A stretch of DNA of 64,000 nucleotides from Antedon mediterranea (taxonomy: Eukaryota; Animalia; Echinodermata). The stretch's first letter is position 1; each line of letters starts with the position of its first letter. The stretch lies in the NCBI RefSeq assembly GCF_964355755.1, contig NC_092678.1:20167365-20231364 (forward strand). Direction: 5' to 3'. The position numbers and the translations under genes are program-made. The notes under the pieces are model-generated. The model searched no databases. It was not told the DNA's origin and worked only from the letters and a program-made list of their open reading frames with translations. Below, one piece after another: positions 12,001-62,069 of this stretch.

Positions 12001-15000
12001 AGAATGTAATACAGTATGTATTTTAGTAAGGTTATTTATATTGACAGGTAGGTATTTCTGAAATTCAACATAAAATATTGTTTAAAAATGTTAAAATGTG
12101 AAAAAAATATATATATTGTGTTAATAAACTTTGTGAGTATTGTTAAATATTATTTTTCGTAAGTTTACATTTTTTTTATAATTCTACTATTTAAATTTAT
12201 AATTGTAATCATATATTATTTTAATTGATTTTTGAAGCGCCAAAACTAAAAATTAAGCCTGTGCGTATTATGTGTTCGATTCCATTTCGAGCGCCGGGCC
12301 GGACGTAGACGCGGCTGCGCCTACAAGTTAAGTTACTGTATATAGGCCTAACGCCTAGATTTTTTTCCTTTTTTTTATTCCTGATATTTTATTACAAAAA
12401 ATACATTACCGTAATACAAAATAATAACAAATATGATCCTCCGTCACCAAAGATTGTATAGCGCCCCGGGCGTAAGATAGATAACTGCGCAAGATATTTG
12501 TAATCCCTTGGAGGCCATTCCGGCGGACAACTTTAAACCGGGTACTGTAAGTCGTTGTCAAGGCAATATTGTACTACAATGTTTTGGTCAAAGACGGAGT
12601 TGTCTAATGTCTAGTTGTCAATGTAAAGTAAACAAAGGAAACTTTTATTTTACTTGGTTTACTGTACATAATTTCTTCCCTTTTTTGTGAATCAACCCTC
12701 AAGATGGTTAACTACAGAAACTTCAAGGCGGACCGCAAAATTTGAACCATTTAGATATTACGGTAAATCGAAATAGAAGGTGCTATGTTAAATGCATTAA
12801 AATGTGTCATTTTTGTTAAAACATGTTGAATTGTACAAAATAAAACCTCCAGAAATTAACTTGGGTTGGAACGTCTTCAAGTTGTACCTACTGTACAGTA
12901 GTTTGCTAGATATTATATCAACTGATCTGATTTAAGGCTAGTGTTTATCAAATTAAATTAGTCGAAATGATGACACAGTAGGCTAAAACCTTTACCCAGC
13001 TGCAATTTTGTTTTCTAGAAAAGATCTGTTTGCAAAGATTTTATATGTCCTCCCGGATATGAGTGCTGTGAGGATATAGATTTATGCGGTGGAGCTAATT
13101 GTCAACCATGTATAGGTATGCTATTTATTTAAATAATACGGCGTGGCTAGAGATACCGTACCATATCTTATGTTCTGGCTGCTAAATGTAAGTAAATGGC
13201 TTACGTCATGGCTATCTAATAATAAATGATTAGTTCGTGACTAATGTAATAATAATGTTGCTAGGTTGTCAACATGGCCCTAGGCTAGGTTAATTTAGCC
13301 TAGGCCTGGCCGTAGTATGCAGGGGCGGTCGCAGGACTATTTTAAGGGGGTTGCCCAAGGGTCACCAGAGGGCCGTAGATATTGAGTATTTGAATTTGTC
13401 ATTTAACAAAAATTCGATGGAATTTCTCGCACATAAAATTCATGATAAATAGAAATGAGACTTTGGCTACAGTAGCAAACAGATCGTATCACGCCTGTTT
13501 TTTCCGCTGGGAAAACACAAGCGACAAACAATAGGCATTTTTTTCGTACAATGCGAAATTCAAAGGAGATCCCAGACGAAGGTACTTCCGGTAATGTGAT
13601 AGATTCTAGCAATTAAAATCATTAATACAATTATTATTATTATTAATTAATAATTAAAACAATTTAGAAAAAAAGGTGAAGCTGCATCATTTTTGTCTCA
13701 TTAAAAAGATTCATTCGGTTGGAATTACAAATAAAATGTAATAGTTAATTATATCTCAACCGTAATAGTAAATAACGATTATTTATTTACTTGACGTTTC
13801 GCCCACTATCAGTTGGCTTTCTCAAAGTGTAGTGACACGTATGTCACAGTTGACCTCTAGATGACGGGGTCAACACATTGGTCCACACTTGAATTTGTAC
13901 CCGCCCTCATCTCTATTAAAATTGGGGATCTTCCTGATCCAGATGGATTCCTTAACCCAGCGTCTTAATCTGCACTATGTTTGTGTTGCATGCTGTTTGG
14001 TGGTTTGTTGCACTGAATAATGATGTAAAAAATGAATTGCCATTCCTATTGGATAGCCATGACATACCATTTACCATACAGATAGAAGATAAGCCATATC
14101 TCTAGCCACAGCATAATAAATTAAAATATTATAAAATTATAGACTATAAGAAAGTTAATAGCATTTATGATTGCTGCTCTTGGCAAGCAAATAATTGTTC
14201 AATTTTGTTCAGTCATTGTAGCATTTTGTTAGGAGCTTGGATGCATAGTAACACACTTTTACTTAATTTTCTTATCTCAATAGATGGCACATTCTCTTCT
14301 GGTAGAGAAATCTGCCAAAATTGTAGCAATTGCCTTCAAGGTGAAAAAATGATTGAAGTGTGTACTCGTACAAGTGACACGATTTGTGAATGCCCTGCTG
14401 GCAATTATATAACCAGTTATAGAGTCTGCAAGCCATGTAGCACATGCAGTGAGGGAGAAGACTGTGGAAAGTGTCAACTCACAATAACAATAAGATCAAC
14501 GTTAATAACCGCAAAAACAGCAGTACCTGGTATGTTTCAAATGACCTCTTTTCTTTAGTATTCTTCTTTCTTTCTCACATATCTTTAAAATGTGTAAACA
14601 TACATTTCACAACTTTGTCAAAATATGTATCTTTACATGTTTTGAAATTGCTATCTTTATATGTAGTATCGTCGTTGAAAATTAATTATTATATAATTAT
14701 TTTCTTTTGGCATAATCTTTTTCTATTGTGCAATATTCTAATATGACATGCACGTGGTGTTTGTTCTGCTTCAAAGTGTTCAAAATCGATTTTTTTTTAA
14801 TGTCTTCAATTTTGTTTTGTTGATTTGTCTTCAATTCATTATTTTATTTTGTAACATTTTTTTTACTGCATATCGTTTGATTTATTATTTTTTATTTTAC
14901 AGCAAGTGAGACGTCTATAGCCAAACATGGATCACCTTGTCAGTGCAACTGTAAACAAGATACCATGGTACCATGGTATTATCTGCTTCTAACGGCTGTT

Positions 15001-30328: not shown

Positions 30329-30364
30329 AGAAACTTCCTTTACATAGAGGGAGACGTAACTCTG

Positions 30365-33400: not shown

Positions 33401-36400
33401 GCCGATGTACAATTTGTATCTTCACATTTGCGAAATAAACTTTTATTTATAAATACGTACGTACGCGCTGCTTGAGTGTGCAAGAAAAGAAAGAAAATAA
33501 ACACTTCACAACTTCCTATAAAGAAAAAAGTCACTATAATATCTATCAAAATGTTTAAAGACTTTTTTCTTTGTCAATTCTTTTTTTTTATCTACAGGCG
33601 AAAAGATCTGATAACTGCGTAGGTGTTCAATGCCTTCCTGGGGAGCAGTGCTGCACGGTTAGAGACGGTTGTGGTGGAAAGTTGTGTGTTGGGTGTGCAG
33701 GTAATGCTATTAAATAATATCCTGTGAATACAATCACTGATGGTAATCTGTAATTAATATAGCCTTCCCTCTGTAACCAAATCAAGAAATTATCGAAATC
33801 TATGCTGCCTCCTGAATCTGGTGTAATTCACGCTGACGAGTGTTTAATAATTATAACATTCTTATTGTAGGCAGATTGTTAAAAAGTAGAAACATTATTC
33901 ACGAGACAAATAATTATATTATGGCCATATATATGGTCGTGTCTAGCTTGATTGTTTCTAGCTTGGTTGTGCCTAGATTGGTTGTTTCTAGCTTGGTCGT
34001 GTCTAGCTGGGTTGTGCCTAGCTTGGTTGTGTTTAGCTTGGTTGTTTCTAGCTTGGTCCTGTCTAGCTTGGTCCTGTCTAGCTTGGTCGTGTCTAGCTTG
34101 GTCCTGTCTAGCTTGGTCGTGTCTAGCTTGGTCGTGTCTAGCTTGGTCGTGTCTAGCTTATAGTCGTGTCTAGCTTATAGTCGTGTCTAGCTTGGTCGTG
34201 TCTAGCTTGGTCGTGTCTAGCTTGGTCGTGTTTAGCTTGGTCGTGTCTAGCTTGGTTGTGTCTAGCTTGGTCGTGTCTAGCTTGGTCGTGTCTAGCTTGA
34301 TCGTGTTTAGCTAGATTGTGTCTAGCTTGTTGCATTAACACATCTAATCAAATTCAACTCAACAGATAAAGAGTTCTCTTCTGGTGAAGTTGGAGTATTT
34401 TGCAGAAATTGTACCAAATGTCAAGATAATGGCATGGTCCAAGTTGAGGAGTGTACGCCCGGAAAAGACGCAGTTTGTGAATCATGTCCACATGGCGAAT
34501 ATATTACTAATGATGACACGTGCCAACCATGTGGTGACATCTGTGAAGGAAAGGAGTGTACAAATTGTAACATAACTCCAACACCAACCCCTTCGGAAAA
34601 GTCCACACCTGGTAAGTTTCAAATTGATAAATTGTCAAGTTGGTAACCAAAATAGTATTTCCCAAGAACGTTTAAACATTTTTTATTTCTTATTCAATCA
34701 TTATATATTATCATTGTATACCTTTTGTTTTATTTCTCCTCTGTATGTTTTCTTTTACAGCTGGTATCACTGGACTATCAACAGCAAGTCAAACGTCAAT
34801 GATAACATTCACATCTCTACCAAACATCGATAAACAAGGTTCATCATGGAAGAGTATATACCTTCTGCCGATAATTGGCGCTCCAGGTAAGGCAAACCTT
34901 TTAACAAATTAGTTCTCTGTCGACTTTTTGGCCATAAAAGTTCAAGTTCAAAATCGTTTATTGCAATCAATTAATTGTAACTGGATATTCATTTTCGACA
35001 AGTTATTAAAAAGAGTAAAACATTAAGACAAACAAGTTACACCAAAACAGTTTTATATATTAATACATTTATGAGTCAATACACAGAAATCAATGAAATG
35101 TTTAAAACATTTGGTAAAAACATGAGTAAAAACATTTTATAAAATGTATACATTTTTGGCCAAACTATTGAGATAGAAGAAGCAAGCTTATATTATATAT
35201 TTGAGAGAAAGTGTGTTTAACAAAACATAATATATGTATATAATTTTTAGAAAGGTAGCCTAATTTATTTATATAACTATTTATATTTCAATGTTTAGGG
35301 GTTGAACTTGATTATATTAAGTTTTATTTATGTTGTAATTTTTACTTTATATGTATAGGTAAATAAATAAAGAAAGAAAAAGGTTTGAAATAAATTGTTC
35401 TACCATTGGTGGAAAATTCAAAAGTGATGAATGTTGTTGCTCTCTCAGTCCTAAGATTATACCAATGGATTGGACAGGAGCATGGTTAAGAGGTAGTTTA
35501 GTCCTAAAATACTTTTTACAGAGATATTTAATAGTAGGCCTTGTCGGTCTTTAAGCGAACGAAATCCAAGAAATAAGAAAGCCTCTTCCTGTGGCAATCC
35601 AGTTCAATATATTTGTTCCGCTTTATCATTCTGACTGGAATATAATATGTATGACCCAGCAATAAATTATAACCACTTCTTTTTTGTGTGTACAGTATTC
35701 AACTCTTGTTTGTTTGGTAAAATAATAGGCCTAACGGTATGCTCCAATTACCTATGGTACCGAGCACATGCTTTCTTTTGGCTTAGTTCTGTTTAGTTTA
35801 GTTAGTATTGCCTTGTTTTCTACTATATTCTGTTTTTAAATATTTTGTTTAGTTTTATTTTAATTCGTTTACTATTAGAAAATGGATGTCTTTTTCTTTT
35901 ACAAAAGGTGAACTTTCTACTTTACAATTTCCTACTTTACAATATTATTACAGATGCTTTATTTATTATGACTTCCAACTAATCCAGACAACTACATCAC
36001 CACAGGTCTAAACTAAGAACAATCAGTTGCTAAGTTGGGGTAGTAAAAAGTATATAATACGGCCTTACCATGTTGAAATACCGGTTCTCGTCAGATCACC
36101 GAAGTTAAGCAACGTTTAGAGCTTTGATGGGAAACCATCTGAAAATACCAGGTGATGTAAAGAGCTGGAGTCCCATTAGGCATTTGAAAATCGCTAACAG
36201 AATTTTTTTTAATGTATTGAATTTCGATTTATATTTACTGTATAGTGTTTGTCATCTTTGTTATTGGCTGTTTGAAAAAGATTTTGTGCTGTTGGACAAA
36301 GGAGTCTCATGACTTTTGGGCAGATCATTTTTCATGTTGCTGTAAAAAATGTAAGTTTCTTATTTTTATTTATTTTATTTATTTATTCATTTCCCAACCA

Positions 36401-39400
36401 ACAGTGAGCTCATGGTTCACCACTTACAGGAGGGAACACAGACAAACACGTACATATACAATAACAAACATTAAACTAAACTACTAACAATGTTACGAAA
36501 CTTACGGAAATTATTACTAAAAATATCTAACTCAGGGTTTCTTAAAGTAAAAGAATTGTAAGTTTGACTAATCTACTAATAAAACCATTTTTTAAAACAT
36601 TTACTCTACTAAAAGGAATATGAAAAGTAGTATTTCTTCTAAGACGACGACTAGGGACTCTAAGATAAAAATTTAAAACAAAAATTGTTTATAAAATATG
36701 ATATTATATTTCGATTTATTACCAGGTATCTTTTTATTCTGAAGGATTTCAGTGATATGTATCATCATCTAGATTATACCATCTTCCCGTTTGTCGACAA
36801 ATACATATTCACAATCGTTGCTGCAATAAACATCTTTGAGAACATCAATTCAAAATCATTGAAAAAACAATTTATACTTTCATCTGTAGTTAGTGTCCTA
36901 ATACATTTTCCAGTGTGTTTTAATAGAACCAAAAATTTGTATAATAATTATCAATATTTTGACTTTAATAAAAGACCTGCTAACTCAATGTATAGCAATC
37001 TATCATGTAAACATGAAACAATTACAATTGTAGATATCATTTAATAATACCATTATCCGTTTATTTAAGTTTAACAAACCATTTTAACTTAACATAAACT
37101 GACCATGGCATTTCCTTTTTTTATATTATGAATATTTTGAAGTGTTTACACATTTCAAATATTGATCATTTCTTTTACAGGTTGTTGCATATTTATACAT
37201 GCACATGACACATCAACGAATAATAATTGTTGTTTTTTTTTTTTTTTTTAAGTAAATTTGTAAAAAGTGGATGTATTATTCCAATTTTTTATTTAATTAT
37301 TACATTTTAATCGAATTCTATTACATTTAGCAAATGGTGATTCTGAACAACAGTCTTTTGTTAATCCTAATGTCAGTTCCAAAAAGCAGGATGATGAGAA
37401 AACAGTGAATTTAGCTGTAAAACAGAAGTCCACAGAAGATCCTATCGGCTGTTCTGATGATCTTATTGTCTCCTATAAACGTAATATAATTTTATAATTT
37501 GAATACTGAATTCATATTAATCAGTTTTCCATTTAAATAGCTATAAATTTACATTAAATCTAACATTTTAATATTTACCCAACTTAGTATTTTATTATTA
37601 TCATTTTAGGTGAAGTTGAAAGAACCCAAATGGGTCACAATCCATCCAGCACAGGTAAAACTGTTTGATTTTTTTGATAAAGTCAAAAAGGTTTAATATA
37701 CCTATATATTTTTAAGTTGATTATTTAAATCAAAATGATTTTTTTTTCAATCAGATCAATTTGGTAAAGATGAATATGACATGCCTGCAAGAAGTAGGTT
37801 GATATTATCAATTTTTTTAAATAGTTTTTAATATTTCTTGTTTTATTTTTAAAAAAAACGAAATAACAAACCTTGATCACAAGAAAAGAAAGGTGTCCTT
37901 ATTTCCACGATGACTACATAAACTGAACAATTGCACAACAAATAAAAAATAAAAATAAAAGCCAAATAAGTTATTTCTTTAAGAATTAAAAAAAAATCAG
38001 TATTTCAGTTACAATTCATTCATTTTAAACTAAATAAAAAATAAATATCAAGATTATTCGTTTTTGAGAATAAGTTGATTTTTTTAATAAAATGTTTATT
38101 ACTGTTTTAGGAACTGAGATTCCTGAGCAAAATGTACTTATGAATCCTAATGGAATCCAACCAACTAATGAAAGTTCAAGTAAGGGTGTAAAAAAGGTTA
38201 TGAGAGGGCGTTCCTCCACCTCCAGCCTTCCTGATGTTTCTGAAGGCACTCCACTATCATGTGATCTTCCTGAATGGTGCAAACGTAAGAATTCAAACAT
38301 TAACAAAATTAAATATCTGTGGATATTTGGACATGATGGTATTTAAGTGTGTGGTTTTTATTATCGACGACTAAACTATGTCATGTTAATTCGTTGTGCG
38401 CATGCGGAAATGTGTCGATGGTCAGTTTAATGGTTTCTGGTTCATTCGACGACCAACGACTTGACTTGACTATAATCTTTTTGTTTGTTGCGTTTGTTAG
38501 TGGAATAATAATATGGTATTTCAAATGGCAAATATATATTTAACATAATTTGTTTTAAAGATTTGGCCACACTCGATCCTCAGTCGTCGCAAATCAAAAA
38601 CTCACTAATTGTGTATACGTTTTCATTTAGTTTACTTTCATATGTTTTTGTAGATGATATTACAATGGTTGGATGTGAAGATATATCAGACATCTCACGA
38701 CACATTGGGAAAGAAGTAACACGGATTGGTGGTATTCTCGGATTAACAACAGGTGAAGTGGAAACCATTAAGCATGACCACAAGTTCGATATATCGAGAC
38801 AGAATTTAGTGGTTTTACAGGAGTGGAAGAGAATGAAAGGTGTACATGCTACGAAAGGTGTTCTTGCACGTGCTCTTGAGAGTATTGGAAAAACAGAAAT
38901 TGCGATAAAATATTTATGGCCGGAGCAAGAATGGGATCAAGGTAGTTTAGTTTTAATGTTCTAAAACAGAGAACATTTTTACACAACAAAAAAGAAATAT
39001 TACGTTGGCAAGCACGTTGGTCAATTTATTCTTGAGACTATCCGAACAAGGCGTAATTTTCTATTTACTGTGAAAAAAAAAATGAGTTTTCCCGCCTCCA
39101 TCTCATGTGTTCCTCCTACTACGATACACAAAGCGGGGTTTTGGGGAACCATGCACTGGTACTGGTACTGGTTCAAATAACCGTCTCACAGAGACATCTG
39201 GTAGCCATTGACTTGAAGTTGGCATTTGGATGTGTTACTTTTAAATGTAGGCCTACAGTATGAGAGTGACTACTACCAAATTACACAGTCACAAAACAAC
39301 TTATAAAACAGTTCATATAACAGTTAAAACATGGCTGGGAATTATAAATTTCTGTTGAAGCAGGCTCTAATGAAGTTGTATCTAGTAAGTTGACTTTGTT

Positions 39401-42287
39401 TACAACTCTATCAAGTACTGATGGTATCTTCCGACCTCTTCGTTTACTTTGCCCTTCTGTAAAATTTCGACTACAAGAAATTTTCTAGCACATCTAACAC
39501 ATCAGCAGTAAAATATACACACACAAAAACAACAAAACATATCTTGATCACAAGGAAAATTTCCACAAACAATTGTATAAAACAATAGTTATTCTAAATG
39601 CCATAGAAATTACATATTAAATTATTTCCTTTAAAATAAAAAAAAACATATTTAGGCCTATAGTTACTTTATTCAAAATAAACTAAAAATTAATAATAAT
39701 AATACCAATAATACTAATAACAATAACAATAATATTAATATTATTATTAATATTAATAATAATAATAATATACATCTGAATTATACTATGTGTAGTAAAC
39801 GTTTATCTCAGTTGATGAGAACAAAACCTGATAAAATTTAATATGAATTTTAAATATTAAAATTGTATTACTGTTATTTTAGGGACTGAGATTCTTGATC
39901 CAACACAGCTTATGAATACTAATGGAAGTTCCATACACCAAACTAATGGAAGTTCAAGTAAGGGTGTGAAAAAGGTTAGGAGACGGCGTTCCTCCACCTC
40001 CAGCCTTCCTGATGTTTCTGAAGACGCTCCACTATCAGGTGATCTGCCTGAATGGTGCAAACGTAAGAATTCAAACATTTAAACAATTTAATATCTGGAT
40101 ATTTGGACATGATGGTATTTATAAGAATGATAGTGTGGTTTTGACTTTCGACTACCGAAGACCAAACTATGTCATGTTAGTTCATTTTGCGCCTGTTGAA
40201 ATATTGGGACGTGTCGAGTGTCAATAGTTGGTTTGATAGTTTCTAGGTCCAATCGACGACCGACGACACGATTGACCTATAAGTCGCTAGTCCTCGGTCG
40301 TCGCAAATAAACGGCTTAATTCACTTGTGTATAAAGATTGTTTTCATTTAGTTTACTTTCATATGTTTTTGTAGATGATAATACAATGGTTAAATGTGAA
40401 GATATATCAGACATCTCACGACACATTGGGAAAGAAGTAACACGGATTGGTGTTATTCTCGGATTAACAACAGGTGAAGTGGAAACCATTGAGCATGACC
40501 ACAAGTTCGATATATCGAGACAGAATTTAGTAGTTTTACAGGAGTGGAAGAGAATGAAAGGTGTACATGCTACGAAAGGTGTTCTTGCACATGCTCTTTA
40601 TAAAATTGGAAGAGGAGAACTTGCAAAGAAGTATTTATGGCCTGAGCAAGAATGGGATCAAGGTAGTTTAGTTTTAATGTTAATGTTCTGAAACAGAGAA
40701 CATTTTTACACAACAAAAAAGAAACCATTGTTTTGTCAGCGAATTCTGGTGGTATTACTTTGACAAGCACGTTGGTCACTTTACACTTAGCCTAACATTA
40801 TCCAAACAAGGCGTAATTTTCTATTTGCTGTGAAAAAAAAAAGTGTTTTCCCGCCTCCATCTCATGTGTTCCTCACAAAGCGGGGTTTTGGGAACCCAAC
40901 CCTTCTACCCATGGTTGTGTTTTAGCTCAAGTTATCTGGGTTATTGGTTATGTTCATATGTTATATGATTTACGTACAGTATAACTTCAATATAGAAAAA
41001 AATTATTTTTAATATAGTTACTTCAGGGAAGATTAAACATATTAATTAAACTTACTCCTCCTTAGTTTATTCTGCCACTATGGCATACTTTGTGTCTCTG
41101 CCTTCTTTATAAATGTCTGCTAGTCCGCATCACCGACGCCGTATCGTTGTTCAACACGGCAATTTGTTTTCCATCATTTTGAATTCTTTTTTTATATTTT
41201 ATTTAGGGATACTAATAACCACTACATTTTGGGGAACAAGAAAAAGTCAGGAGTTGGAAATCAATGATTCTGGTTAGTACTTGAGGCTGATGCAAGCTTT
41301 TCAAATAATTAAATTGATATTAAAAACGTTTTTTTTATTCATTATTTTATTTTTACGCCTAATGATTTATTTCCTGACTGCAAAAAGGGACTTATGATCT
41401 TAAGTATCACTGATATTAAGGGAATACTTTGGGCTTTCCTGTATATAAAGGAGAAGCAGTGCATGTTGTAATACTATAGGGATACCCTATAATTGCACAC
41501 TTTATTGAGTAATCAATTATTTTATTTTATAGGTTATTTTCGTAATAAAGACTGGACAGTGCAAAGAACATGGCAAGGGATCTGGAATATTATGTTAGAA
41601 AACAACTTTGGAAGTTTCAGACAACTAAAATTAGCTTGCGGCACTGTAGAGTTACAACAGCCTCACCTTAAATGTATACAACGATGTCCACTTTTTCAGA
41701 CGTCAATTCATGGTTTGGATCGAAATGCGTTAGGCCTATCCCCGATTTATTATTCATCATTCAAATATCTATTTCCCGTTAGTGTTTCACATGGGGTAAA
41801 CTGTTTATTCTCTGCTGCATCTGTTATCTACTATGGTTCAGAAGATAATTTTCTTGAGTTAAAAATACGAACAGTCGTTGAGTTAGCTTATCATAAAGAT
41901 TACTATTTGAATCAAGAAACACTTATCAATTGTATGGAGGCTGAGTATGCACTGACCAAGTTAGAAGAGAAAGATACATCCTTCAAATCTACAGATATAG
42001 AAGCACGCTTTGAAAATTTAGTCAGAAAAACATTAATTAAACAAAATGTTTTTAGCCTACAGGGAAACTCCATGCATTTGTTCGGCTTAGCGTCAGTTTT
42101 TAACTGTAACATTCAGTCCGTTTACCCTACGATTGGTGCTTCGCAACCAAGTCCTTTAAATGTACTTATCACTCCTCGTAAGAAGATAGAAAATCCAGCA
42201 ACAGTTTTCATTATGTGGTCTAGGCACACACCAAAAGCAGAATATGAACATTTTATTCCTAACCACTTTGTGCCTCTTTTTCCCTGA
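30457..42287 (+). CDS. TNF-receptor-like death receptor, gene 2, with two death domains and a C-terminal vertnin-like OTU domain (~884 aa). Exons 30457-30546, 33598-33700, 34366-34611, 34761-34886, 36246-36350, 37331-37480, 37610-37654, 37755-37793, 38111-38284, 38654-38941, 39883-40062, 40375-40662, 41207-41272, 41533-42287
   Basis: All introns GT-AG, phases 0 then 1 throughout, no internal stop; signal peptide, TNFR Cys repeats, TM IYLLPIIGAPVFVIFVIGCL, two death domains, OTU motifs. Read-through stops at 38964 and 40691 give shorter forms. Confidence 0.78.
31729..32494 (+). mobile_element. DINE-1/HINE-like element in gene 2 intron 1
   Basis: Full structure; inserted in a T-run; empty sites in paralogous sequence at ~45335 and ~48160. 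Confidence 0.8.
33935..34330. repeat. 15-bp minisatellite (TCTAGCTTGGTCGTG)n in gene 2 intron 2
   Basis: ~26 units; degenerate relative at 45070-45170. Confidence 0.92.
36058..36162 (+). pseudogene. 5S rRNA-derived relic (pseudogene or SINE3 head)
   Basis: TACGGCCTTACCATGTTGAAA..CCGGTTCTCGTCAGATCACCGAAGTTAAGCAACG..GATGGG..AATACCAGGTG.TGTA matches the 5S consensus with deletions; absent from the gene 3 intron. Confidence 0.8.
36360..36670 (-). mobile_element. LINE 3' fragment inserted 10 bp into gene 2 intron 5
   Basis: (TAAA)n tail and RT C-terminal relic; absent at the gene 3 site ~57492. Confidence 0.6.
41533..42287 (+). CDS. Vertnin-like OTU cysteine-protease domain exon
   Basis: HGVNCLFSAASV..GSE..LELKIRTVVEL..YYL; HLFGLASV..IQSVYP..N..PR..IMWS..F.PNHFVPL match VRTN-family OTU motifs as I recall them; strong acceptor TTTTATAG. 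Confidence 0.8.
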
Positions 42288-46814: not shown

Positions 46815-49800
46815 ATGTGTTTTTCAAATTTCACTATTCTATTTGTACTAATATCTTGGATTATTCAATCTTCACTAATTTTATCGAGTCCAGTTCAATC
46901 TAAGGTAGGTAGGGTTCATAAATAAAGTTTAATTAAGTTTATATTTATTCAACCTATTGATTATTATGTTCTGGTTACAATATATGAAAGTGAGGAGAAT
47001 TTATTGAAGGAGTAACCTTTTAAGTTAATGACGTAGAACATTCCTGAAGTGTTAACGCTCCGAGTATACAAGTCTATTGTTTATATATAAAATGTTTTAT
47101 TATAAATTTCGCACAACATTGCTATATACCTCACGTATTCTTCACCAACGGTGAAGCAGAACGGACATAGTGAAATAAGCCTCCCTTTTAAAGAGTTGTA
47201 CACGACTTTTATAATAATATGAACACCTACCTTGAAGCAATTTTACATATTATGCGATGACATACGTAACAACGTAACAAATGTCACAGTTATTATTGAT
47301 TATCTGTGTCTGACTAACAACGCAACAATAGGTTTCAGTGTATGTGCTCTTTCGAGAAATAACAAGTATATATTTCAGTGTAAGACTAGGTTAAACAGAT
47401 ACTAAATGAATTTACTGGTCTATTTCACGTATTAGTCTGATCTATTAGATGTATAATAGTGAGTAGAAGTTATGAGAAATCCTTTTTTTCCACGTGGGAA
47501 TCGCCCACCTTTATTACAAATGTATTCTCATTTTAAATTATGAACGTATTCAATTACAAATCGATGTATAATATTCATAAAATGTCATTCTTAAAACGAT
47601 ATAGTTGACTACATATTTGGCATAAAGATAAATAGACTCTATGAAGATGAAGCTATAGGCCTCGAAGAACCGTTGATAATAAAATAATTATATATATTTT
47701 ATATTTAAAATGTTACTGTACAATTAATAATATTTTATTGAAACAGTTTTATGAAATAAAATCTAGGTAGGTGTTCAAAAATGCTAGTTTTTACATTTTT
47801 ACATTTTTTTGTCCGCTTTCATAAAATTGCATCCGTATTCATTTTGATTTCAATTCAAATGCAAACAAATTCCATATCATTTTATGTTTTTTTCGTATTT
47901 TATAATTTTTCCAGCATGATTTTATAATCAAGTGTGAGAAATTCTTAATTTATAATGGTGTCAATCAGATTGTTATGGTTTCCAAATCAACGCCATCTTC
48001 CATTCCTAGAAACCGTGTACCTATATAGCTCGAAGAATTCACCCTCAAAGTCACTAGCATTTTACTTGTTTACTGTAGATCTGTTATAATTGCTACTATC
48101 ATGTGTTGAAAGTTTACATAGCTATCTGTTCCTGCTTGTTATTGAAAACGTACTACTCTATTTGAACTAGTACACTTTTACCTGCCAATTGTTTATAATA
48201 ATTGATTTAACAACATTTTTAATTGTTTGTTAGTTCATTTTTATACTGGGTGACCTCTTCAGTCACAGACTGATCTCCCAGAGGGCCCAGTTGGTGATCA
48301 GTGGCTGTGATGTACTAATACACCGGGGTAACCCCCTACTCGTCTCGAAAGATGTACTAGGTTCTTTAAAGTGCACACGAGCTAGTTGTGTACACTGGAC
48401 CTACGGTTTATAGTCCTTATCCGAGAAGACTCGTTCTACCACCAGAACCATGGAGTGAGTGAGCCTCGAACCCTTGCCGATGTTATGGCTACGTAATTAC
48501 GGTTCCACTGTCTTAACCGCTCGGCCACTCACTCACTTAAGTATAGTATTTATTTATTTACCAGATGTCTAGAGCGCCCTTTTCATGAATACTGATGCTC
48601 AAAGGCGCTTCACATCATAAAGAAGACCAAACAAATTGTAGTAGAAAAATACAAGATTACAAAAAACAACTCTGTCTTCAATTATAACTGCATTTCATTA
48701 ATACAAATCTATTATTTCATTTGTATCGTAAAATAAGGTTATGACATAAATTCGTAAAATCCATGTATGGTTTTTAGAATTCGGAAGTAATCCACTACAA
48801 ATGACACAGTTTTTATGTTAAAAACGACTGAAAGGGAAGCCAACAACAGTACAAGGATCTCGTCACAGGATCCATTAAATCACCACAATAGTCGGTTATT
48901 TGTGCGCTAGACCTTATTCTGTGTGTTACTTTTTTTAAAGATTGAAATTTAATCAAGTTCAACGTTTTGTATATTATATCGTTACATAATTATATTATTG
49001 GTCAAAGGTCATAATAGATAAATTATAGTATTTTTTTTATATATAACTAAACTATATAAATTAATAAAATAAAGGCAAAATACTGAAAAATGAAAATGCA
49101 GTGGCTGGATCTCAATGGAGAAAAAAAAGCGAAAAGCTAAATCAACACTATAAAGTAAAACAGCCAGAAAATTTAGCAGAGCTTTCGGACAACACTAGCC
49201 CTTCATCAGTGCAAGTGAAGGTAGGCTACTTGGACAAGATAGATAGATATATAAGGCAAGCGCTGCCTGAGTGGACAGGAAAAAACGAAATAGAACAATT
49301 TAAGAGACATAAGGCTGGTGAATAGAGTAGTCCAGTCCCTAAGGGGAGAAAAAGGGGTGGGATGTTACCAGACTGGATACAATTTTTTCAATATAGCAGT
49401 TTGGTACAGTATAGTGTGGAGATGCCAAAACAAAGTTACTGGAAATCTGATTTGACCTCTGTGACCTCTGACCTCAATTTTTATATTTTTATATTATATA
49501 ACTAAAAATCACCATATCTTGACAACGCAGGGACATTTTACATTTATTTTTTTTTTCAAAATGCTTGGAAGATATATATTTATATTCGCTATAATGAAAA
49601 AAATTGTACGAAAATGGTCGCAACGGCTTTATTTTTCAGTTTGACCTTTGACCTTGATTGCCTAATATCTCAATAACACGCAATCTCAAAGATTTGAGAA
49701 TGGGCTCAAAATGTTAAGAAAATAAATCTAATATTTAGTCTAATAGAAACTTTTTTCAAAAAATTACCATAAATTAAGCTTTTTTGACCCTTGACCTCTA

Positions 49801-52800: not shown

Positions 52801-55800
52801 TATTAACCGGTTAAATGGCAGTTTGAAACGGAAACACTCAATCGAACGCCTTTTAACTTGTTACCGATGTTTTCCTACAATTAATTGTATATTCATATAT
52901 ATATAATACGTACGTGCGCGCTACTTGAGCTTGCCCAAGACTAGTGAGTCAAGGAGAAAGAAAGAAAATAAACCTTCACAACTTCTTTGAAAAAAAAAGC
53001 CACTATTGTCTATCTAAATGTTCTTGTTTAATGACTTGTTTTCTTTGTCATTTCTTTTTTTATCTATAGGCGAAAAGATCAGATGAAAAAGTCTGCGCAA
53101 ATCTTACATGCCCTCCTGGGCAGGGGTGCTGCACGGATAGATCATTAGATGTTTGTGACAATTTCGGGCCGTGTATTCCGTGTGGAGGTAATGATATTAA
53201 AGAATATCCTGTGAATTCAATAAAACATTAATTGTAGTATATACGGATGGTAATCTGTAATTTCAAGCTTCCCTCAGTCAACAAATCGAGAAATTATCGA
53301 AATCTATAGGCTGCCTCCTTCTGAATTTGGTGTAATTCACGCTGACGGTTGTTTAATAATTATAATATTCTCATTGTAGGCAGATTGCCCTTCGCTGCAT
53401 GGCTTAAAAAAGTGGATAAATTATTCACGAGACAATATATTATGGCCATAATATACAAATTGTTATGACAAAAACCCGGCCTCTGACAGGATTTTGAACC
53501 CGGAACAACCTAGGATCGTTAGCCTAGCATATAAATATGCCTATAGTTACAAAGCATCTCTAGTTACCTGGTAGCGTTTTAAATCATTAGAGGCCCGTGT
53601 GCATGACGTTCTGCATTTGCGAAAATGCTGTTGTAGGCCTATAGATTGTTGTTGCAACGGTTTGTTATGTTTGTTTCTTTATTAAATTTCCCACACACAT
53701 CAAATAATACAGTTGTACATTCTAATTAAACATAATTATACATTAGATTAAAAGAAAAATGTATGTGGATAGAGGTCAAATAACTTTAAGGCTGACCCCA
53801 TTTCAAATATTATTATACATATTATATTATTAATATTATAATATTATGTGATAAATAAAGATAAAAAAGAAGTAGAGAAAAGGATGAGTTAAAAGCCAAA
53901 ATAAATAAATAAGTAAACAGAGTAGTATTCGGATAGATATAGGCCCATGGGATAAAAAGCAAATATGCATATGGCAATATGTAAAATCAATAAAAATAAA
54001 AATATAATGAAAATATAATGGATAATACTAAATAGAAAGTTTTGAAAATGTTCTACTACGACTAAATGTTATCTCAAGAGTTACTGTGTCAGCATGTACT
54101 GTTCAACCTTATGGTGTAGGTATAATAAGAGCACTCTGAGATCACTGAAAGTATGTTATAACGTTTGCTGCTGAAGAAATTGTCAAGTCAAGAAATTGTA
54201 GTGCAAGCATGATGTTTGTCTTAAATGACGTCCCATCCTTTGATGAGTTCATTAGGAAGTTTTAAAAATCGCGTGAACGCAAGCAAGTAGTAATTAATTC
54301 TTTGATCATGGCCATTAATCGTTCTTAATGTGTCAAGAATGCACATACAATGGAATGCCTTGTTGCATTGACTTTATATATTTATACATTTTTGTTTTTG
54401 TTCTATATGAGCTCTTAGATTAAGATTTTTTCTTTTTTTTTCTCTATTTTGCGATGAATATATTATTTCACCATGATATTCGGAAATAAAAAGATGAATG
54501 AATGAATACATTATTTGAGATAAGGAAATACATAGGCAAAATAAATCAGATGGTGCATGTTAGGCAATTACTCACCATATGTATGAGGTTTCTTGATGTT
54601 ATCTATAATTTATATAAATTATGGTTAATACTGACATAGGCGAGCACAATGGAAAAACTTCGGTACAAATCTCCGCCTTGGATACCTACCTTGTCTATCT
54701 CCGATGTACCGCGAAACGTAGATTGGATAACATTAGTTTCCACTATTACGATATTGTTCCATATTTCTATCTTAGGAAGATATTATAAAGGGTTTTATAA
54801 CAACATTTTTGATTTCATCAGTATATTTTCAATTCAATTTCAATTGTACGCGGGGGTCGAAGTAATTTCCGGGTTCACGATAATATTTAAAATTAGCAAT
54901 GGATGGTTTGTTTTTCAATTCAATCGAAAGAGAATTCCAAAGTCTGGGACCAGCGAAACAGAATTACGTCTAATGGTTTGTTGTAAAAGCTTCGGTAACA
55001 TAATTATCAGCATGTCTAATATATGCTTGTCATATGATTTAACATATGAGGTGAAATAATTAAATTGGGAATATGATACATGAACAGAGCCGTTTTGGTG
55101 TTTATTAATATCGTAGATGTTCAAAACATTAAACTTAAAGAATTAAGGTTTGGTATGAGATGGAAATGATGAGCCATCACATATTCTCAAGGCTCTCTTT
55201 TGTAATTTGAACAGATTGTGCGGAGTGTATAAATTGTAACATAACTACAGCAATGCCAACATCAACACCAACACCATCGGAAATGTCCACAACGCCTGGT
55301 AAGTGTTTCAAACTGAGAAATTAATTGTCAAGTTGGTAACCAAAATAGCATTTCCCAAGAACGTTTAAACATTATTTCTTACTCAATCCTTATATATTAT
55401 CACTGTATAATTTTGGTTTAATTTTTTTTGTTTCTATGTTTTTTAACTACAGCAACGCCAACACCAACAACTTCGGGAAAGTCCCCAACGCCTGGTAAGT
55501 TTCAAATTAGGAAATTAATTGTCAAGTTGGTAATCATTAATTTCTAATATTTTGTTTCCCAAATATCAGCCATATCTCAAATATAATTTAAGGAATCCAC
55601 GCACAATTCATGTTCCATTTACCAAACTTACTAAGATTCAATTATTTATAAGTGTTGCTGGTTCTAAACTATGGAATGAGCTTGATGCAAACTTATTTAT
55701 ACAGTTTATAGAAATATTCTACTTTTTAAAAAGCATGTTAAACGTCACGTTTTATCTAAATAGAATTAATATTATTGGGTTTATAGTTTTTGCGCAAACA

Positions 55801-58800
55801 ATTCGTTTTATTAAATCTTCTTTTATTCATTCGCTGAATTGGTCAAACTTTTGAACTTCAAATTATTATTATATCATATTGTATCCGTCCCTGGGTCATT
55901 TTGAGACAAGGTCATTGAACTTCTAATTATGATCAAGACCGATAAGAACATTTCATTGTATCCAAATGTATTTGTTAACTTGAATTATTATTTATGTTGT
56001 TTTTATTATTGACAAATATATTTTTTTTTCCATTATATTATCTTCAAATTATTATTATCATTAATATTATGTTTATTATTGTTCAAATAAAGGTTACCCA
56101 ACAAAAATAACCAAAATAGCATTTCCCAAGAACGTTTAAAACATCATTTCTTACTCAATCATTATATTATCACTGTATAGCCTAATTTTGGTTTTATTGT
56201 TTTATTTCTATGTTTTCTTTTACAGCTGGTACCACTGGACTGTCAACAGCAAGTCAAACGTCAATGATAACATCCACATCTGTACCAAACATCGATAAAC
56301 AAAAGGAAGGTTCTTTATGGAAGAGTATATACCTTCTGCCGATAATTGGCGTCCCATGTAAGGCTATCTCTTTAACAAATTGTTCCCTGCCGTACAAGTT
56401 CAAGTTTAAAATCGTTTTTTTTGCAATCAATTAATTAACTGGATATTAATTTACGATCTATAGAAAAGTTATTAAAACATTAAGATAAACAAGTTACACC
56501 AAAACAGTTTTATAAATGAATACATTGTTGAGTCAATTTGGATATAATATATACAATATATAGAAATCAATAAAAAGTTTAAAACATTGGGTACAAAATG
56601 AGTAAAAACATGTTATAAAATGTATACATTTTTTGCCAAACCATTGAAATAGAAGAAGCAAGCTTTGAAATAAATTGTTCTATCATTGGTGGAAAACTCC
56701 AAAGTGGGTTTTGAATGTTGTTGCTCTCTCAGTCGTAACTTTCAGTGTGCCTTCATGTCCTGAGATTATACCAATGGACAGGGGCAGGGGTTAAGAGGTA
56801 GTTTAGTCCTAAAATACCTTTTACAGAGATATTTAATAGTAGGCCTAGTCGGTCTTTAAGCGAAGCGAAATCCAAGAGATAGGAGAGCCTCTTCATCAAT
56901 CCAGTTAAGAATTGTTCGCTTTATAATTCTTACTGTAATATGTATGAACCAGCAATAAATTATAACAACTGCCTTTCTTGCGTACAGTATTCAGCTCATG
57001 TTTGTTTGGTAAAATAATAGGCCTACGGTACCGAGCACAAGCTTTCTTTTGGCTTTGTTCTGTTGCCGTTGTATTGCATTGTTTTCTACTCTGTTCTGTT
57101 TTTAAATATTTTTGTAATATTTTATTTTAATTCATTCACAATTATAAAACTACCGATTACATGTACCTCCTTGGCGGAGGTAAATGAATGTCTTTTTCTT
57201 TTACAAAAGGTGAACTTTCTACTGTAAAATATGAATACAAATGCTTTATTTATTATGACTTCTAACTAATCCGGACAACTACATCATCACAGGTCTAAAA
57301 TAAGAAGTCAGTTTTAAAGTTGGTAAACAGTACAACAGTATTCGTTAATGTATTGAATTTTGATTTCTTTTTAAAGTGTTTGTCATCTTTGTTATTGGCT
57401 GTTTGAAAAAGATTTTGTGTTGTTGGACGAAGGAGTCACATGACTTTTGGGCGGATCATTTTCCATGTTGCTGTAAAAAATGTAAGTTTCTTATAGATTT
57501 AAAACAAAAATTGTTTATGAAATATGATATTTTATTTCGATTTATTATCAGGTATCTTTTAATCGTGAAGGATGGGAGGTAGTTATACAGATAACTAAAG
57601 TTATTAAGTATTTTAGATAAACATCTACATCATCTTCGACAGTCTTCCTTTCGTTGACCAATACATATTCACAATCGTTGCTGCAATAGACAGTTTTGAG
57701 AACATCAATTCAAAATCAATATAGAAAAAAAACATGTATACATTCATCTGTAGTTTGTCTGTGTGTTTTGATAGAACCAAAAAGTTGTATAATAATTATC
57801 AATATTTTGACTTTAGGCCAAAACCCCGAAAGTGAAGATGGAAATAAGGGTAATAAAAGACCTGCCAACTCAATGCTTAGCAATCTATCAGGTAATAGTA
57901 AAACAATTAAAATTGTAGATATCCTTTTATAAGTACCATTATCTGTGTATTGAAGTTTAACAAACCATTTTAACATAACACAAACTGACCATGGCATTTC
58001 CTCTGTGTAATGTAACAAGGCCATATACATATCTGCAGTCGCGTGCTCAAGTTAGTATTTGCCGACCGACCGACCAACCGACCCACCGTCATAGTGAACT
58101 GTAGAGTCGCGTTGTGTACGCGACTAAAAATATGCATTGGTAGTAACATAATGCTTTTATATATGATTCTTTTTTACACAGCTTAAATATTTGGTAATTT
58201 CTTTTACCGGTTGTTGCATATTTGTACATGCAAATGACGCATCAATGAATGGTAAAATAAGTATTTTTAAAATTAACTTGTAAAAAGTGCATGTATTGTT
58301 AAAAAAGTTGTATAATGATTAAAATGTAATCTTTTAAATTTCTAATTCTCTTACATTTAGCAAATGGTGATTCCGAACAACAATCTCTTGTAAATCCTAA
58401 TGTCAAAAAGCAGGATGATGGCAAATCAGTGAATTTAGCTGTAAAACAGGAGTCCGCAGAAGGTCCCATCGGCTGTTCTGATGATCTTACTGTCTCCTAT
58501 AAACGTAATATAATTTTTATAATATGAATACTGAATTTATATTAATCAATTTTCCATTTAAAATAGCTAAAAATGAATTGCAATTATATATTTACAATAA
58601 ATCAAATCTTTAACAAACATAAATTTAAATATCTACTCAACTTATTAATTGTAATATAAAAATGTATTATAATTTTAGGTGAAGATGAAAGAGCCCAAAT
58701 GGGTCAATATCCATCCAACACAGGTAAAACAGTTTGATTTTTAAAATAAAGTAAACAGGTTCATAAGGCCTATATATATATAATTGGCAAATTAGTGCTT

Positions 58801-61246
58801 GCTTTTGGATGTGCATGGAAACAAATTATTGAAATCAAAATGATTTTTTTTTTCAATATCAGATCAATTTATTCAAGATGGGAATGATAGGCCTGCAGCA
58901 AGTAAGTTGATATTATCTTGAATTTTTATTTGCAATAGTTTTTCATATTTCTTATTTTATTTTAAACCAGAACCATTTACAAATTCGAATACACATCAAC
59001 AGTAAAAATTAAAAAAAACAAGGCCAACAGCCATTAAGTCGCGTGCTACAATGCATAGTGATACCGGACCGACAGACAAACAGACCGACAGACAGACAGA
59101 CCGACAGACAGACGGACCGTCCGACATAGTGAACTATACTGACCGAAATTACTGAACATGTTTAAAAATGTTGAAATGTTTAAAAACATTTATATTTTTT
59201 TAATTTACACGTGCGTAGCCTGTCACTTTTGACGTGCTCGTATAACGTAATTTCGAGTTGAAAAGTAAGTCAAGAAAACAGAAATCGGGTAAAAAGAGTG
59301 CGCAATAACATTTAACGCGCAGTGCGTGCGCAAAAATCTGCGCACTCATGGCAATTTTGTAAACGCTTAAAATTGCCTGAAACGTACTCTTATTTCATCG
59401 AAAATAAATTTTGAAAATTTTAAGCGCGCGTACGCATGCGTTACATGCGCTACGCACGTAATTGTATTGCCATATGATGATTTATGCCCTGAAATTTATG
59501 AGTACCAAATTTTATTTAATTGTGATTCATGGTTGTTAAGATATGATTACAAACGTGATTTCGTTAAATCGTGCGTAGACCGCGTAATTTTTTATTGCGC
59601 ACCGTGAAAACATAACCACATCGATTCCTGGCCATAAGGAATATTCTGTGAAAAATTTACTTAGCTAGATTAAACTGATATCAAGATAAGGTCATAAAGC
59701 GATAAAACGCATAGTGATACCGGACCGACAGACAGACAGACAGACCGACAGACAGACCGACAGACCGACAGACAGACAGACAGACCGACCGACCGACATA
59801 GTGAACTATAGAGTCGCTTCCACGCGACTAAAAACGAAATAACAAACCTTGATCACAAGGAAAGAAAAGTGTTCTTATTTCCACCGTGACAAACTGAAAA
59901 ATTGCACACAAGAAAATAGTTTTTCTCTAAAAGTCATAACAATTACACATAAGTTATTTCTTTAAGAATAAAAAATATATATTTTAGTTACAATTCATTC
60001 ATTATGTACTAAAATAAAAAATAAATAAATAAACGAACATCTGAATTACATTCATAATAAACTTTTATCAAGTTTATTATTGATTGAGAATAAGTTTAGT
60101 AAAAATTGAATTTATTTTTTATAAAATGTTATTACTGTTTTAGGGACTGAGATTCCTGAGCAAAATGTACTTATGAATCCTAATGGAAATTCCATACAAC
60201 AAACTAATGGACGTTCACATAAGGGTGTAAAAAAGGTTATGAGACGACGTTCCTCCACCTCCAGCCTTCCTGATGTTTCCGAAGACGCTCCACTATCAGG
60301 TGATCTGCCTGAATGGTGTAAACGTAAGAATTCAAACGTTTAAAAAATGTAATATTTGGATATTTGGACATGTATTTATAAGAATAATAGTGTGGTTTTG
60401 ACTTTCGACGACCGAAGACCAAACTGCGTCATGTTAGTTCAATGAATGGTGCAAACGTAAGAATTCAAACATTAACAAAATTAAATATCTGTGGATATTT
60501 GGACATGATGGTATTTAAGTGTGTGGTTTTTATTATCGACGACTAAACTATGTCATGTTAATTCGTTGTGCGCATGCGTGAATGTGTCGATGGTCGGTTT
60601 GATGGTTTCTGGTTCATTCGTCGACCAACAACACACATCGATTATCCTGACCTCTAGTGATGTCGTCGATCAAAGTAACCAAATCTGGAATAGTTATGCT
60701 TTCTGGCCTAATTTTGACCAATCTGTAATCTAGCATCTTTTTGCTTGTTGCGTTTGTAAGTGGAATAATAATGGTATGTCAAATGGCAAATATGGCGCCA
60801 CCAAGCGATCTAGCATCCAAAGTATTTTTGTTAATTTACGTTCTGCATTTGTTAAAAGCTTTGGCCACACACTGTCGTCGATCTTCGGTGGTCGCAAGTC
60901 GAAAGCTCACTTTTGTATAGGATTGTTTTCATTTTGTTTACTTGTTTTCATAGATGATAATACAATGGTTAAATGTGAAGATATATTAGACATCTCACGA
61001 CACATTGGGAAAGAAGTAGCAAGGATTGGTGTTATTCTCGGATTAACAACAGGTGAAGTGGAGACCATTGAGCATGACCACAAGTTCGATCTATCAAGAC
61101 AGAATTTAGTGGTTTTACAGGAGTGGAAGGGACAGAAAGGTGTTCATGCTACTAAAGGTGTTCTTGCACATGCTCTTCATAAAATCGGAAGAGGAGAACT
61201 TGCAAAGAAGTATTTATGGCCTGAGCAAGAATGGAAACAAAGTTAA
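46815..61246 (+). CDS. TNF-receptor-like death receptor, gene 3, truncated ectodomain (~448 aa). Exons 46815-46904, 53070-53187, 55215-55298, 55453-55494, 56226-56357, 57377-57481, 57817-57891, 58361-58504, 58679-58723, 58863-58901, 60144-60323, 60954-61246
   Basis: Exon-by-exon paralog of gene 2; GT-AG, frame open; single death domain; could be a decaying copy. Confidence 0.7.
48213..48536 (-). mobile_element. tRNA-derived SINE with Nin/Deu-like core
   Basis: A box TGGCCGAGCGG, B box GGTTCGAGGC, core GGATAAGGACTATAAACCG..TAAAGAACC..GAGTAGGGG; possible TTAA TSD; empty sites at ~32548 and ~45390. Confidence 0.85.
49993..50250. repeat. ~260-bp fold-back palindrome (MITE-like) inside the Academ
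   Basis: GAGAGAGGGG..GATGGAGAGACACATATTTT..GTGATGTGCCCA / TGGGCACATCAC..AAAATATGTGTCTCTCCATC..CCCCTCTCTC. Confidence 0.75.
50560..51400 (-). mobile_element. Old LINE RT relic inside the Academ
   Basis: Minus-strand DYQKAFDSI at ~50815-50845; boundaries approximate. Confidence 0.55.
53990..54507 (+). mobile_element. LINE 3' fragment with (TGAA)n tail
   Basis: SASMMFVLNDVPSFDEFIRK relic; AATAAA followed by TGAATGAATGAAT. Confidence 0.55.
54510..55220 (-). mobile_element. LINE-derived sequence abutting gene 3 exon 3
   Basis: Minus-strand HNLFKLQKRALRIC..SHTKPL..VLNIYDINK, typical CR1/L2 RT C-terminus; probably composite. Confidence 0.7.
55535..56095 (+). mobile_element. CR1/L2 3' fragment
   Basis: YNLRNPRTIHVP..ISVAGSKLWNEL; interrupts intron sequence GGTAA|CCAAAATAG. 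Confidence 0.7.
58014..58130 (-). mobile_element. Short DINE/HINE-like copy
   Basis: AACAAGGCC..AGTCGCGTGC..(CCGA)n..GAGTCGCG..CGCGACTAAAAA. Confidence 0.7.
59016..59834 (-). mobile_element. DINE-1/HINE-like element in gene 3 intron
   Basis: Full structure; empty site at ~37855 in gene 2. Confidence 0.8.
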
Positions 61247-62069
61247 ATGAGATGACGTTAAATCACATCGTTGAGGGTAAGATTTTGACCTCTATCAATT
61301 TATAAAGGTAAAAATCTTACCCTCCGAAAGTTCGCACATACTTGTTCCTGTTTGATTGGCACACACACCAATACCAAGCCTGAAGAAGGACATTCGTTCC
61401 TAAACAGCACTCAGTTTGTCCCTGGTACTTTTTCCTAAACCAACAATATAGGCCTAACATTAGTTCTGATTACTGTAGGAGATATATAGATTTTTTCAAT
61501 CTAATTAATAGTCTACAAGTTCGTCATTCTTTGACATTCTCAAAGAACATTTCGTAAAAATTGACTAAAGTTTCAAGATTCTGTATAATTGGTTCCTATC
61601 TTAAAATCCGACATCCCATTTGCAATTATACATGTACCGTAATGGTAGAAAAACTATAAAACAAACAAAAACACAGCAAATTTGAAAAGTGATAAAGTTA
61701 TCATTATGATATCATTGAGGAAAAACAGAAAACAATAAAGACATTTTTTAATGAAACATTGAACATAGTGGTATTGAACCAAACTGTTTATACAATAATA
61801 ATATTATACAATAATATAATATGCATTAAACGTGTACAGGTTAAGATGTATACATTAATATTTGTAATGCAATATTTAATATTTAAGATATAGGCCTAGG
61901 TGATTTACCTGCAAATTATAATATTGACTTGTGTATGTTACTGTGTTACAGTGATCAAGTTATTGTAATACTTTCATATTATATATACATATACATATGT
62001 TACTATACTACATCCTCTATTCACCAGCCCTTATGCCTCTTTTGTTTTATTTCTCCTTTGTATCTTGTC

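Follow-up and report, generated by a model that had tools for sequence, protein, structure and literature searches.

What remains of a death receptor when most of the exon encoding its cysteine-rich repeats is deleted and the remnant is joined to a transposon? The question is raised by the third of three related genes in a 64,000-nucleotide (nt) stretch of the genome of the crinoid Antedon mediterranea (RefSeq assembly GCF_964355755.1, contig NC_092678.1, positions 20,167,365 to 20,231,364), hereafter the window, whose positions are counted from its first letter. The window has a GC content of about 33%, and the exon models place the three genes on the plus strand, with gene 1 starting at 9012, gene 2 at 30457 and gene 3 at 46815. 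The family profile matches the ectodomains of TNFR1, DR5 and p75NTR as well as RIPK1-type death domains. There is hardly any doubt about the anatomy of gene 3, namely, a deletion in exon 3 and a remnant joined to an antisense fragment of a long interspersed nuclear element (LINE). As to its function, the reading offered here, tentatively, is that gene 3 is a likely expressed, doubly truncated modulator of receptors that combine TNFR repeats, a death domain and an OTU-like domain.

The deletion in exon 3 of gene 3

The exons and the transposon fragment on which the argument turns are the following.

14284..14529, plus strand: gene 1 exon 3, intact 246-nt reference exon, phase 1-1, with TNFR_c6 (exon model and Pfam)
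34366..34611, plus strand: gene 2 exon 3, intact 246-nt reference exon, phase 1-1, with TNFR_c6 (exon model and Pfam)
46815..46904, plus strand: gene 3 exon 1, signal-peptide-like, phase 0, with the same start as the RefSeq prediction P0006 (exon model and comparison with P0006)
53070..53187, plus strand: gene 3 exon 2, retained seven-cysteine N-terminal module, phase 0-1, diverging fast from gene 2
54885..55221, minus strand: decayed, 5'-truncated tail of LINE open reading frame 2 (ORF2), antisense to gene 3 (ends approximate; upper end 55216 to 55221)
55190..55214, plus strand: pyrimidine stretch and AG acceptor within the LINE, weak (matrix score; same acceptor in XP_071961225.1)
55215..55298, plus strand: chimeric exon 3 of 84 nt, seven junction bases (55215-55221, including a Cys codon) followed by the old exon 3 tail from 55222
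55453..55494, plus strand: exon 3b, 42-nt tandem copy of the exon 3 tail, Thr/Pro stalk, phase 1-1

The intact exon 3 of genes 1 and 2 matches Pfam TNFR_c6 with E-values of 3.4e-10 and 2e-8, respectively. In gene 3, the similarity to exon 3 of gene 2 begins at 55222, and what is left is a phase 1-1 exon of 84 nt with an open frame, bounded by AG at 55213-55214 and GT at 55299, that reads DCAECINCN after exon 2. The lost 5' part was not found between 35000 and 64000 (best E-values of 0.72 by blastn and 0.74 by tblastn), and TNFR_c6 has no match in exon 2 or in the 84-nt exon, nor, at E-values up to 10, in the spliced gene 3 product P0006. All this agrees with an earlier note that was made from the letters of this DNA alone, which had reported the 246-nt exon of the siblings, its LINE-joined 3' end in gene 3, the missing upstream part, the 84-nt exon and the loss of the TNFR repeats. 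The feature that characterizes the TNFR superfamily, in the excerpted text of PMC4979521, is at least one extracellular six-cysteine TNFR repeat; gene 3 has none and by that feature is a derivative of superfamily members rather than a member. Gene 3 is matched letter for letter by two RefSeq predictions, P0006 (XP_071961225.1) and P0002 (XP_071959970.1, from residue 8), and a third one, P0001, which lacks exons 1, 2 and 5, matches gene 2; the RefSeq models of genes 2 and 3 may have been derived from the same assembly.

A LINE-borne acceptor that would restore cysteine parity

The minus strand from 55220 downward reads HNLFKLQKRA, as in the earlier note, and the fragment aligns to the ORF2 tail of another LINE in the window, at 4515-6848 (score of 80, not reached in any of 300 shuffles, with a mean of 40), which itself matches RVT_1 with an E-value of 2.8e-26; the 42-amino-acid fragment has no Pfam match of its own. 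The element, which we take to belong to an L2/CR1-like clade, is dispersed, with up to six variant contigs per site in the DNA run X1. The similarity to ORF2 covers the acceptor AG, so that the splice site lies within transposon sequence, in line with the original proposal. A contig of run X7 carrying the variant letter of other LINE copies matches, by computation, through 55216, and the new Cys codon (55217-55219), which the LINE had been thought to supply, is likely to be LINE-derived, with the end of the element falling between 55216 and 55221. The native acceptor of gene 2 and the LINE acceptor share their last seven bases, and in gene 2 a similar TGTG immediately precedes the breakpoint, so that this codon could also be common to both by microhomology.

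The same note had held that the LINE acceptor keeps gene 3 in frame, and this part was rejected. The flanking exons meet in phase 1, at the end of exon 2 and at the start of exons 3b and 4, so that the LINE is unnecessary for the frame, and skipping of exon 3 altogether still gives an open product of 420 amino acids. Among the 19 AG dinucleotides between 54900 and 55295, two yield an in-frame, stop-free exon, with starts at 55215 and 55251. What the LINE rescues is the even number of cysteines. The intact ectodomains contain 18 cysteines in five of five cases (genes 1 and 2, P0003, P0005 and P0007; P0001 and P0004, models without an N-terminus, were not counted), and that of gene 3 contains 10 with the LINE acceptor and 7 with exon skipping or with the AG at 55251. 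The ectodomain made through the 84-nt exon ends with C-x2-C-x2-C-x2-C-x2-C, aligned to the last module of the family. The canonical TNFR repeat pairs C1 with C2 (excerpted text of PMC4979521); the partner that the last cysteine of exon 2 would have in a canonical repeat is deleted in gene 3, and this cysteine now stands within the C-x2-C run. The AlphaFold model of P0006 is too poor for use (predicted local distance difference test, pLDDT, 47.7), no usable match to the gene 3 ectodomain was obtained in the Atlas, and none to P0006 among the PDB sequences.

Probable use of the acceptor in RNA

The RefSeq prediction XP_071961225.1 uses the same LINE acceptor and the 42-nt exon 3b. The records list no RNA for 52900-61300, which speaks neither for nor against transcription. 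Read cover was examined over 54640-55400 in 4 of the 14 listed runs, of which X5, from another sample and another study, is taken to be RNA by guess only; the stretches without cover (55108-55211 in X5, about 55217-55262 in X7, and from about 54978 in X9) were not counted as evidence. The bin means of X5 give a weak hint of acceptor use: they fit a single contig block, 42.7 deep, that runs from 55213 to 55298, and none of the other starts or ends tried fits (23 starts and 12 ends in all), the end being dependent on the assumption of a second contig of depth 4.3 over 24 places. A spliced transcript would match the window from 55213 because exon 2 ends in AG. Exon 1 also ends in AG, so that a transcript spliced from exon 1 would fit as well, but out of frame. 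Messenger RNA of gene 2 was excluded as the source of this cover, given that it would start at 55222 and give a value of 26, not 41. The same run contains a 162-nt contig identical to the LINE copy of gene 3, which makes an assembly error less likely, and with the same LINE copy and exon present in a second sample, an assembly artefact was discarded as an explanation. Taken as a whole, use of the LINE acceptor in vivo is likely.

A second truncation: the OTU-like tail

Downstream of the stalk, gene 3 and gene 2 are laid out as follows.

56226..56357, plus strand: gene 3 exon 4, stalk and first half of the transmembrane segment, with T at donor position -1 (G in gene 2); read-through reaches TAA at 56432
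57377..57481, plus strand: gene 3 exon 5, rest of the transmembrane segment and Cys-rich juxtamembrane part, protein 97% identical to gene 2
57817..60323, plus strand: gene 3, five short linker exons for the cytoplasmic region, phase 1-1, also in P0002
60954..61246, plus strand: gene 3 death-domain exon, terminated by TAA where the paralogues have a donor to the OTU-like exons
38654..40662, plus strand: two tandem death-domain exons of gene 2 (38654-38941 and 40375-40662) with a linker exon, all in frame
41207..42287, plus strand: terminal exons of gene 2 (41207-41272 and 41533-42287), OTU-like domain without counterpart in gene 3

The complete gene 3 model has 12 exons with GT-AG ends, all open, and encodes 448 amino acids with a predicted signal peptide, a predicted transmembrane segment and a death domain (PF00531, E-value 8e-11, above the cut-off, in the exon at 60954-61246). 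The frame of gene 2, of 884 amino acids, continues past its second death domain into two further exons. The region 39855-40688 had been considered as a stray duplicate, and this was rejected, as it is the second death domain of gene 2.

The same terminal domain is found in P0003, P0004 and P0007, the latter from a second crinoid, Anneissia japonica (70, 71 and 49% identical, respectively). The Cys motif NCLFS and the late His motif NHFVPL are invariant in the four aligned tails and follow the OTU order, and the Atlas places the tail at 0.94 to an OTU cluster, 44% of whose members contain PF02338. The only PDB match of the tail is OTUD1 (E-value 0.57), with the Cys motif aligned. Modeling of the OTU-like exon gave a pLDDT of 38.5, too poor for use, and Foldseek returned no match at an E-value of 0.001. 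The gene organization suggests crinoid death receptors with a putative deubiquitinase of their own, a layout that appears in both Antedon and Anneissia. No paper describing a TNFR-death domain-OTU fusion was found among the titles listed, and domain tables in papers on crinoid genomes could include this layout; the term ‘OTU' is absent from the main text of PMC4979521 and of bioRxiv 10.1101/2021.12.26.474206.

Behind the death domain of gene 3, only a degraded donor is left (-0.1 bits), with a stop directly after it. The similarity to gene 2 ends at 61243, and no sequence resembling the OTU exons is present between 61244 and 64000, the end of the window. Judged by its sequence, gene 3 appears to be cut at both ends, lacking the TNFR repeats on one side and the OTU-like tail on the other. 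The earlier description of an intact transmembrane segment and death domain therefore stands in part: an open genomic frame runs through both, but RefSeq splits the gene in intron 4, ahead of the death domain, and the tail is missing in comparison with the closest paralogues.

Proposed role and competing explanations

In the tentatively preferred reading of gene 3 as a modulator, the gene has lost the 5' two thirds of exon 3 along with the OTU-like tail of the family, and the antisense LINE fragment likely provides the 84-nt remnant with an acceptor and a cysteine; all ten cysteines would pair in a compact one-module ectodomain. The short membrane receptor would join its sibling receptors through the retained N-terminal module and the near-identical transmembrane segment (97% identity over the exon), tuning their signal instead of binding their ligand; the complex would shift toward lasting ubiquitin signaling, with an added death domain that brings no deubiquitinase. 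The most elaborate version is improbable as a whole: here, gene 3 would be expressed, perhaps still segregating, deprived of ligand repeats and brake alike, endowed by the LINE acceptor and its cysteine with a foldable ectodomain, and would serve as a gain knob by diluting the OTU domains of its siblings.

Several observations weigh against this reading. The LINE acceptor is weak: with a matrix derived from the genes of the window, it scores 1.7 bits, third from the bottom among 30 modelled acceptors and 11th among the 102 AGs scored in 53260-55297, compared with -2.8 bits for the native exon 3 acceptor of gene 2 and 5.1 bits for the in-frame AG at 55251. No spliced joint or loose-end letters at 55213 are among those listed, and the status of X5 as RNA is a guess. 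RefSeq ends the transcript in intron 4, which gives 180 amino acids and no death domain, and assigns the half from the transmembrane segment to the death domain to a separate 299-amino-acid model. Cysteine parity is a post hoc pattern drawn from one event. The OTU assignment is below the Pfam cut-off (PF02338, E-value 0.045, 14.7 bits against a cut-off of 23.3 in P0003 and P0005; no match in P0001, P0004 and P0007), so that the tail is best called OTU-like and likely a deubiquitinase. The signal of selection sums both lineages since the duplication and speaks of a functional past, not of function since the deletion. Finally, the nonsynonymous difference (pN) reaches 0.32 in exon 2; the adjacent intron has 0.089 (p 4e-6), and the remaining exons have 0.067. 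This divergence would fit a module that still binds something, resembling a variable contact surface.

The first alternative to consider is that the main product is the 180-amino-acid form, in which exons 1, 2, 3, 3b and 4 are joined and the exon 4 donor is read through to the stop in intron 4, giving a secreted or loosely anchored one-module decoy without a death domain. This form is XP_071961225.1, letter for letter; the donor has changed from G to T at -1 relative to gene 2, the best hydropathy window drops from 2.6 in the 448-amino-acid model to 1.4, and poly(A) hexamers are located at 56471, 56569, 56669 and 56954. The donor nevertheless retains 9.4 bits, in the middle of the range among 30, exons 5 to 12 are open and conserved, and the RefSeq models in this region are fragmentary, as in gene 2. 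Because the donor score is still that high and the RefSeq model of gene 2 also lacks three exons, splicing onward to the transmembrane and death-domain exons is the somewhat more probable outcome, and the short form as main product seems unlikely.

The next possibility is that the deletion in gene 3 is recent and tolerated: the promoter would be intact and the allele still transcribed and spliced to the nearest usable AG, but it would have no function and be on its way to becoming a pseudogene. The frame is kept however the exon is spliced, so that an open frame requires no selection, and the cluster has undergone turnover, as seen from a spare, frameshifted exon 2 at 44480. Furthermore, depth arithmetic in X1 fits, as a weak suggestion, a second gene 3-like copy, diverging from the window at about 55220-55222, the LINE breakpoint. 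This copy has a depth of 29 and, over 55246-55384, 5 differing letters and 4 gap letters. Perhaps it represents the other haplotype, in which exon 3 would be different and possibly intact; if the copy is real, the deletion would be young or heterozygous. Depth is not copy number, so that the copy is no more than a lead.

A comparison of gene 3 with gene 2 speaks for the modulator reading. The ratio of nonsynonymous to synonymous divergence (dN/dS) is 0.05 in the transmembrane exon and 0.34 in the death domain (0.66 when compared with the first death domain of gene 2); some linkers are near or above neutrality (0.75, 0.97, and one with five nonsynonymous and no synonymous differences). Over nine exon pairs, with exon 2 excluded, pN is 0.067 and the synonymous counterpart, pS, is 0.136. 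Among the 10 internal coding gaps (two end gaps were dropped), 8 have a length divisible by three, and the remaining pair, of 7 and 4, are neighbors with a net change of 3; in introns, 7 of 48 gaps in six blocks are multiples of three. Against the notion of a tolerated allele stand the recurrence of this LINE copy and exon in a second sample, taken from a different study, the absence of any stop or frameshift in 12 exons, and the restored cysteine parity; this explanation, too, appears doubtful.

The third alternative is that gene 3 is not ligand-blind at all but is a mini-receptor whose single module binds its own ligand or a microbial product and which, lacking the OTU-like tail, uses its death domain for signaling. 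Exon 2 keeps all seven of its cysteines at only 50% identity to gene 2, and a TNFR with one cysteine-rich domain (CRD) and a known ligand exists, namely, Fn14 (in the excerpted text of PMC9846315). One paralogue has two isoforms, P0003 and P0005, whose differences are confined to the signal peptide and this same first cysteine module, as if alternative pairs of first exons swapped a variable module. The module of gene 3 has no TNFR_c6 match, though, its pN does not significantly exceed the pS of the same exon (p 0.2), and it may have diverged before the deletion, which leaves a mini-receptor slightly less plausible than the two preceding alternatives. Because the exon 2 module resembles a variable contact surface, the label ‘ligand-blind' given in the earlier note has to be limited to the binding partners of the missing repeats: the disappearance of the TNFR_c6 repeats is borne out, and general blindness is not, with a fast-diverging seven-cysteine module retained. 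A constitutively active death receptor, freed from autoinhibition by the ectodomain and from a deubiquitinase brake, is very improbable: the ectodomain of DR5, CRD3 in particular, is autoinhibitory (extract of PMC8720280), and both the membrane-proximal repeats and the OTU-like tail are missing from gene 3, but the mechanisms vary among TNFRs (extract of PMC9846315), the N-terminal module and a longer stalk remain, and a permanently active death receptor would probably be costly.

Other features of the cluster

Gene 1 shares the ectodomain and transmembrane exons with genes 2 and 3 and has a different tail (23873-25795) that consists of an exon of acidic repeats and a death domain of divergent sequence (Pfam E-value 0.0056), which the death domains of the paralogues miss by tblastn; this tail ends in a stop, and no OTU-like frame was seen there. 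An intron of gene 1 contains, at 16853-22886, a long terminal repeat (LTR) retrotransposon with LTRs 99.1% identical and a single open minus-strand frame of 1587 amino acids, in the order SCAN, zinc knuckle, integrase, and then reverse transcriptase and RNase H. With the integrase before the reverse transcriptase and with SCAN, it is, presumably, akin to Gmr1-like elements, of which it is reminiscent.

Between genes 2 and 3, at 44328-45918, lies a gene fragment that breaks off just before the expected start of exon 3. It consists of a 72-nt copy of exon 2 with the cysteine frame lost (44480-44551), intron 2 up to a tandem repeat, and then a copy of intron 1 sequence. Gene 3 itself is a mosaic relative to gene 2: the intron 1 block differs by 1.9% (46672-49054 vs 30324-33076; 52503-53455 vs 33069-33933 were also compared), and the introns around exons 2 to 8 differ by 8-15%, a pattern of divergence that suggests unequal exchange or conversion. 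The 75-nt linker exon of gene 3 (57817-57891) has lost its acceptor in the gene 2 counterpart (about 36965-37010); small phase 1-1 exons are readily gained and lost in this receptor family.

Next to the LINE fragment, 54640-54880 is a very high-copy repeat, with a summed depth of up to 200,000 in X1 compared with about 40 for locus-unique contigs. Another LINE-like piece is located in intron 3b, and a third candidate relative, at 54500-54660, was rejected (no match, 140 of 300 shuffles).

55537..56090, plus strand: second LINE-like fragment, sense (ends approximate; weak match, score of 47, 8 of 300 shuffles)

Comparison with known systems

Transposon exonization in immune receptor genes is documented in mammals: the excerpted text of PMC13709765 lists IFNAR2-S, produced by an Alu, IL18R1-Short, by an L2 element, and sPD-L1, by LINE-2A, and names antisense copies as the usual source of cryptic splice sites, a statement made of Alu. 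Gene 3 resembles these cases, so far as that excerpt describes them, in that a transposon within an immune receptor gene likely provides an RNA-processing signal, with a shortened receptor as the predicted result. The mammalian forms, on the same basis, are alternative isoforms that exist beside an intact gene and mostly lose the signaling end. In gene 3, by contrast, the loss is extracellular: the gene itself no longer contains the native acceptor or the TNFR repeats, and the LINE site substitutes for them. Only seven junction bases would be carried into the mRNA, and the host animal is an invertebrate.

A receptor of this family without its ligand-binding part also has precedents. The short isoform s-p75NTR of mammals lacks the neurotrophin-binding site encoded by exon 3 (excerpted text of PMC4444824), and NRH2/NRADD is a paralogue named in PMC2772990. 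Like both, gene 3 derives from the TNFR family, is predicted to have a transmembrane segment and a death domain, and lacks the main ligand-binding repeats; such forms are thought to modulate partners. NRH2 is not known to contain CRDs. The short p75NTR arises by exon skipping, whereas gene 3 arose by deletion combined with a transposon acceptor, in a crinoid family with an OTU-like tail. Transposon-made truncated immune receptors and a TNFR isoform without the ligand site, both mammalian, are thus already known, as far as the sources excerpted here go; gene 3 adds an invertebrate example, and a clean one, in which a transposon fragment takes the place of a deleted splice acceptor in an immune receptor gene, possibly young enough for comparison with an intact allele.

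The predicted layout of the family, with a signal peptide, a Cys-rich ectodomain, one transmembrane segment and a death domain, is that of TNFR1, DR4/DR5 and p75NTR. It differs from these in the C-terminal OTU-like domain of the parental genes, in the two death domains of gene 2 and in the absence of any TNFR_c6 repeat from gene 3. The tail is akin to the OTU deubiquitinases (PF02338, OTUD1) in its Cys motif NCLFS and late His motif NHFVPL and in its Atlas neighbors, which are OTU clusters. In mammals, A20 and OTULIN act on TNFR complexes, to which they are recruited; the crinoid tail, in contrast, is fused to the receptor's own cytoplasmic end, and it falls below the Pfam cut-off. A receptor family with an apparent OTU-like deubiquitinase of its own is more striking than the LINE acceptor and is probably the most interesting feature of the window. 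Genes 2 and 3 form a natural pair, with and without the ligand repeats and the enzyme, in which the effect of a receptor-tethered deubiquitinase on death-domain signaling could be compared.

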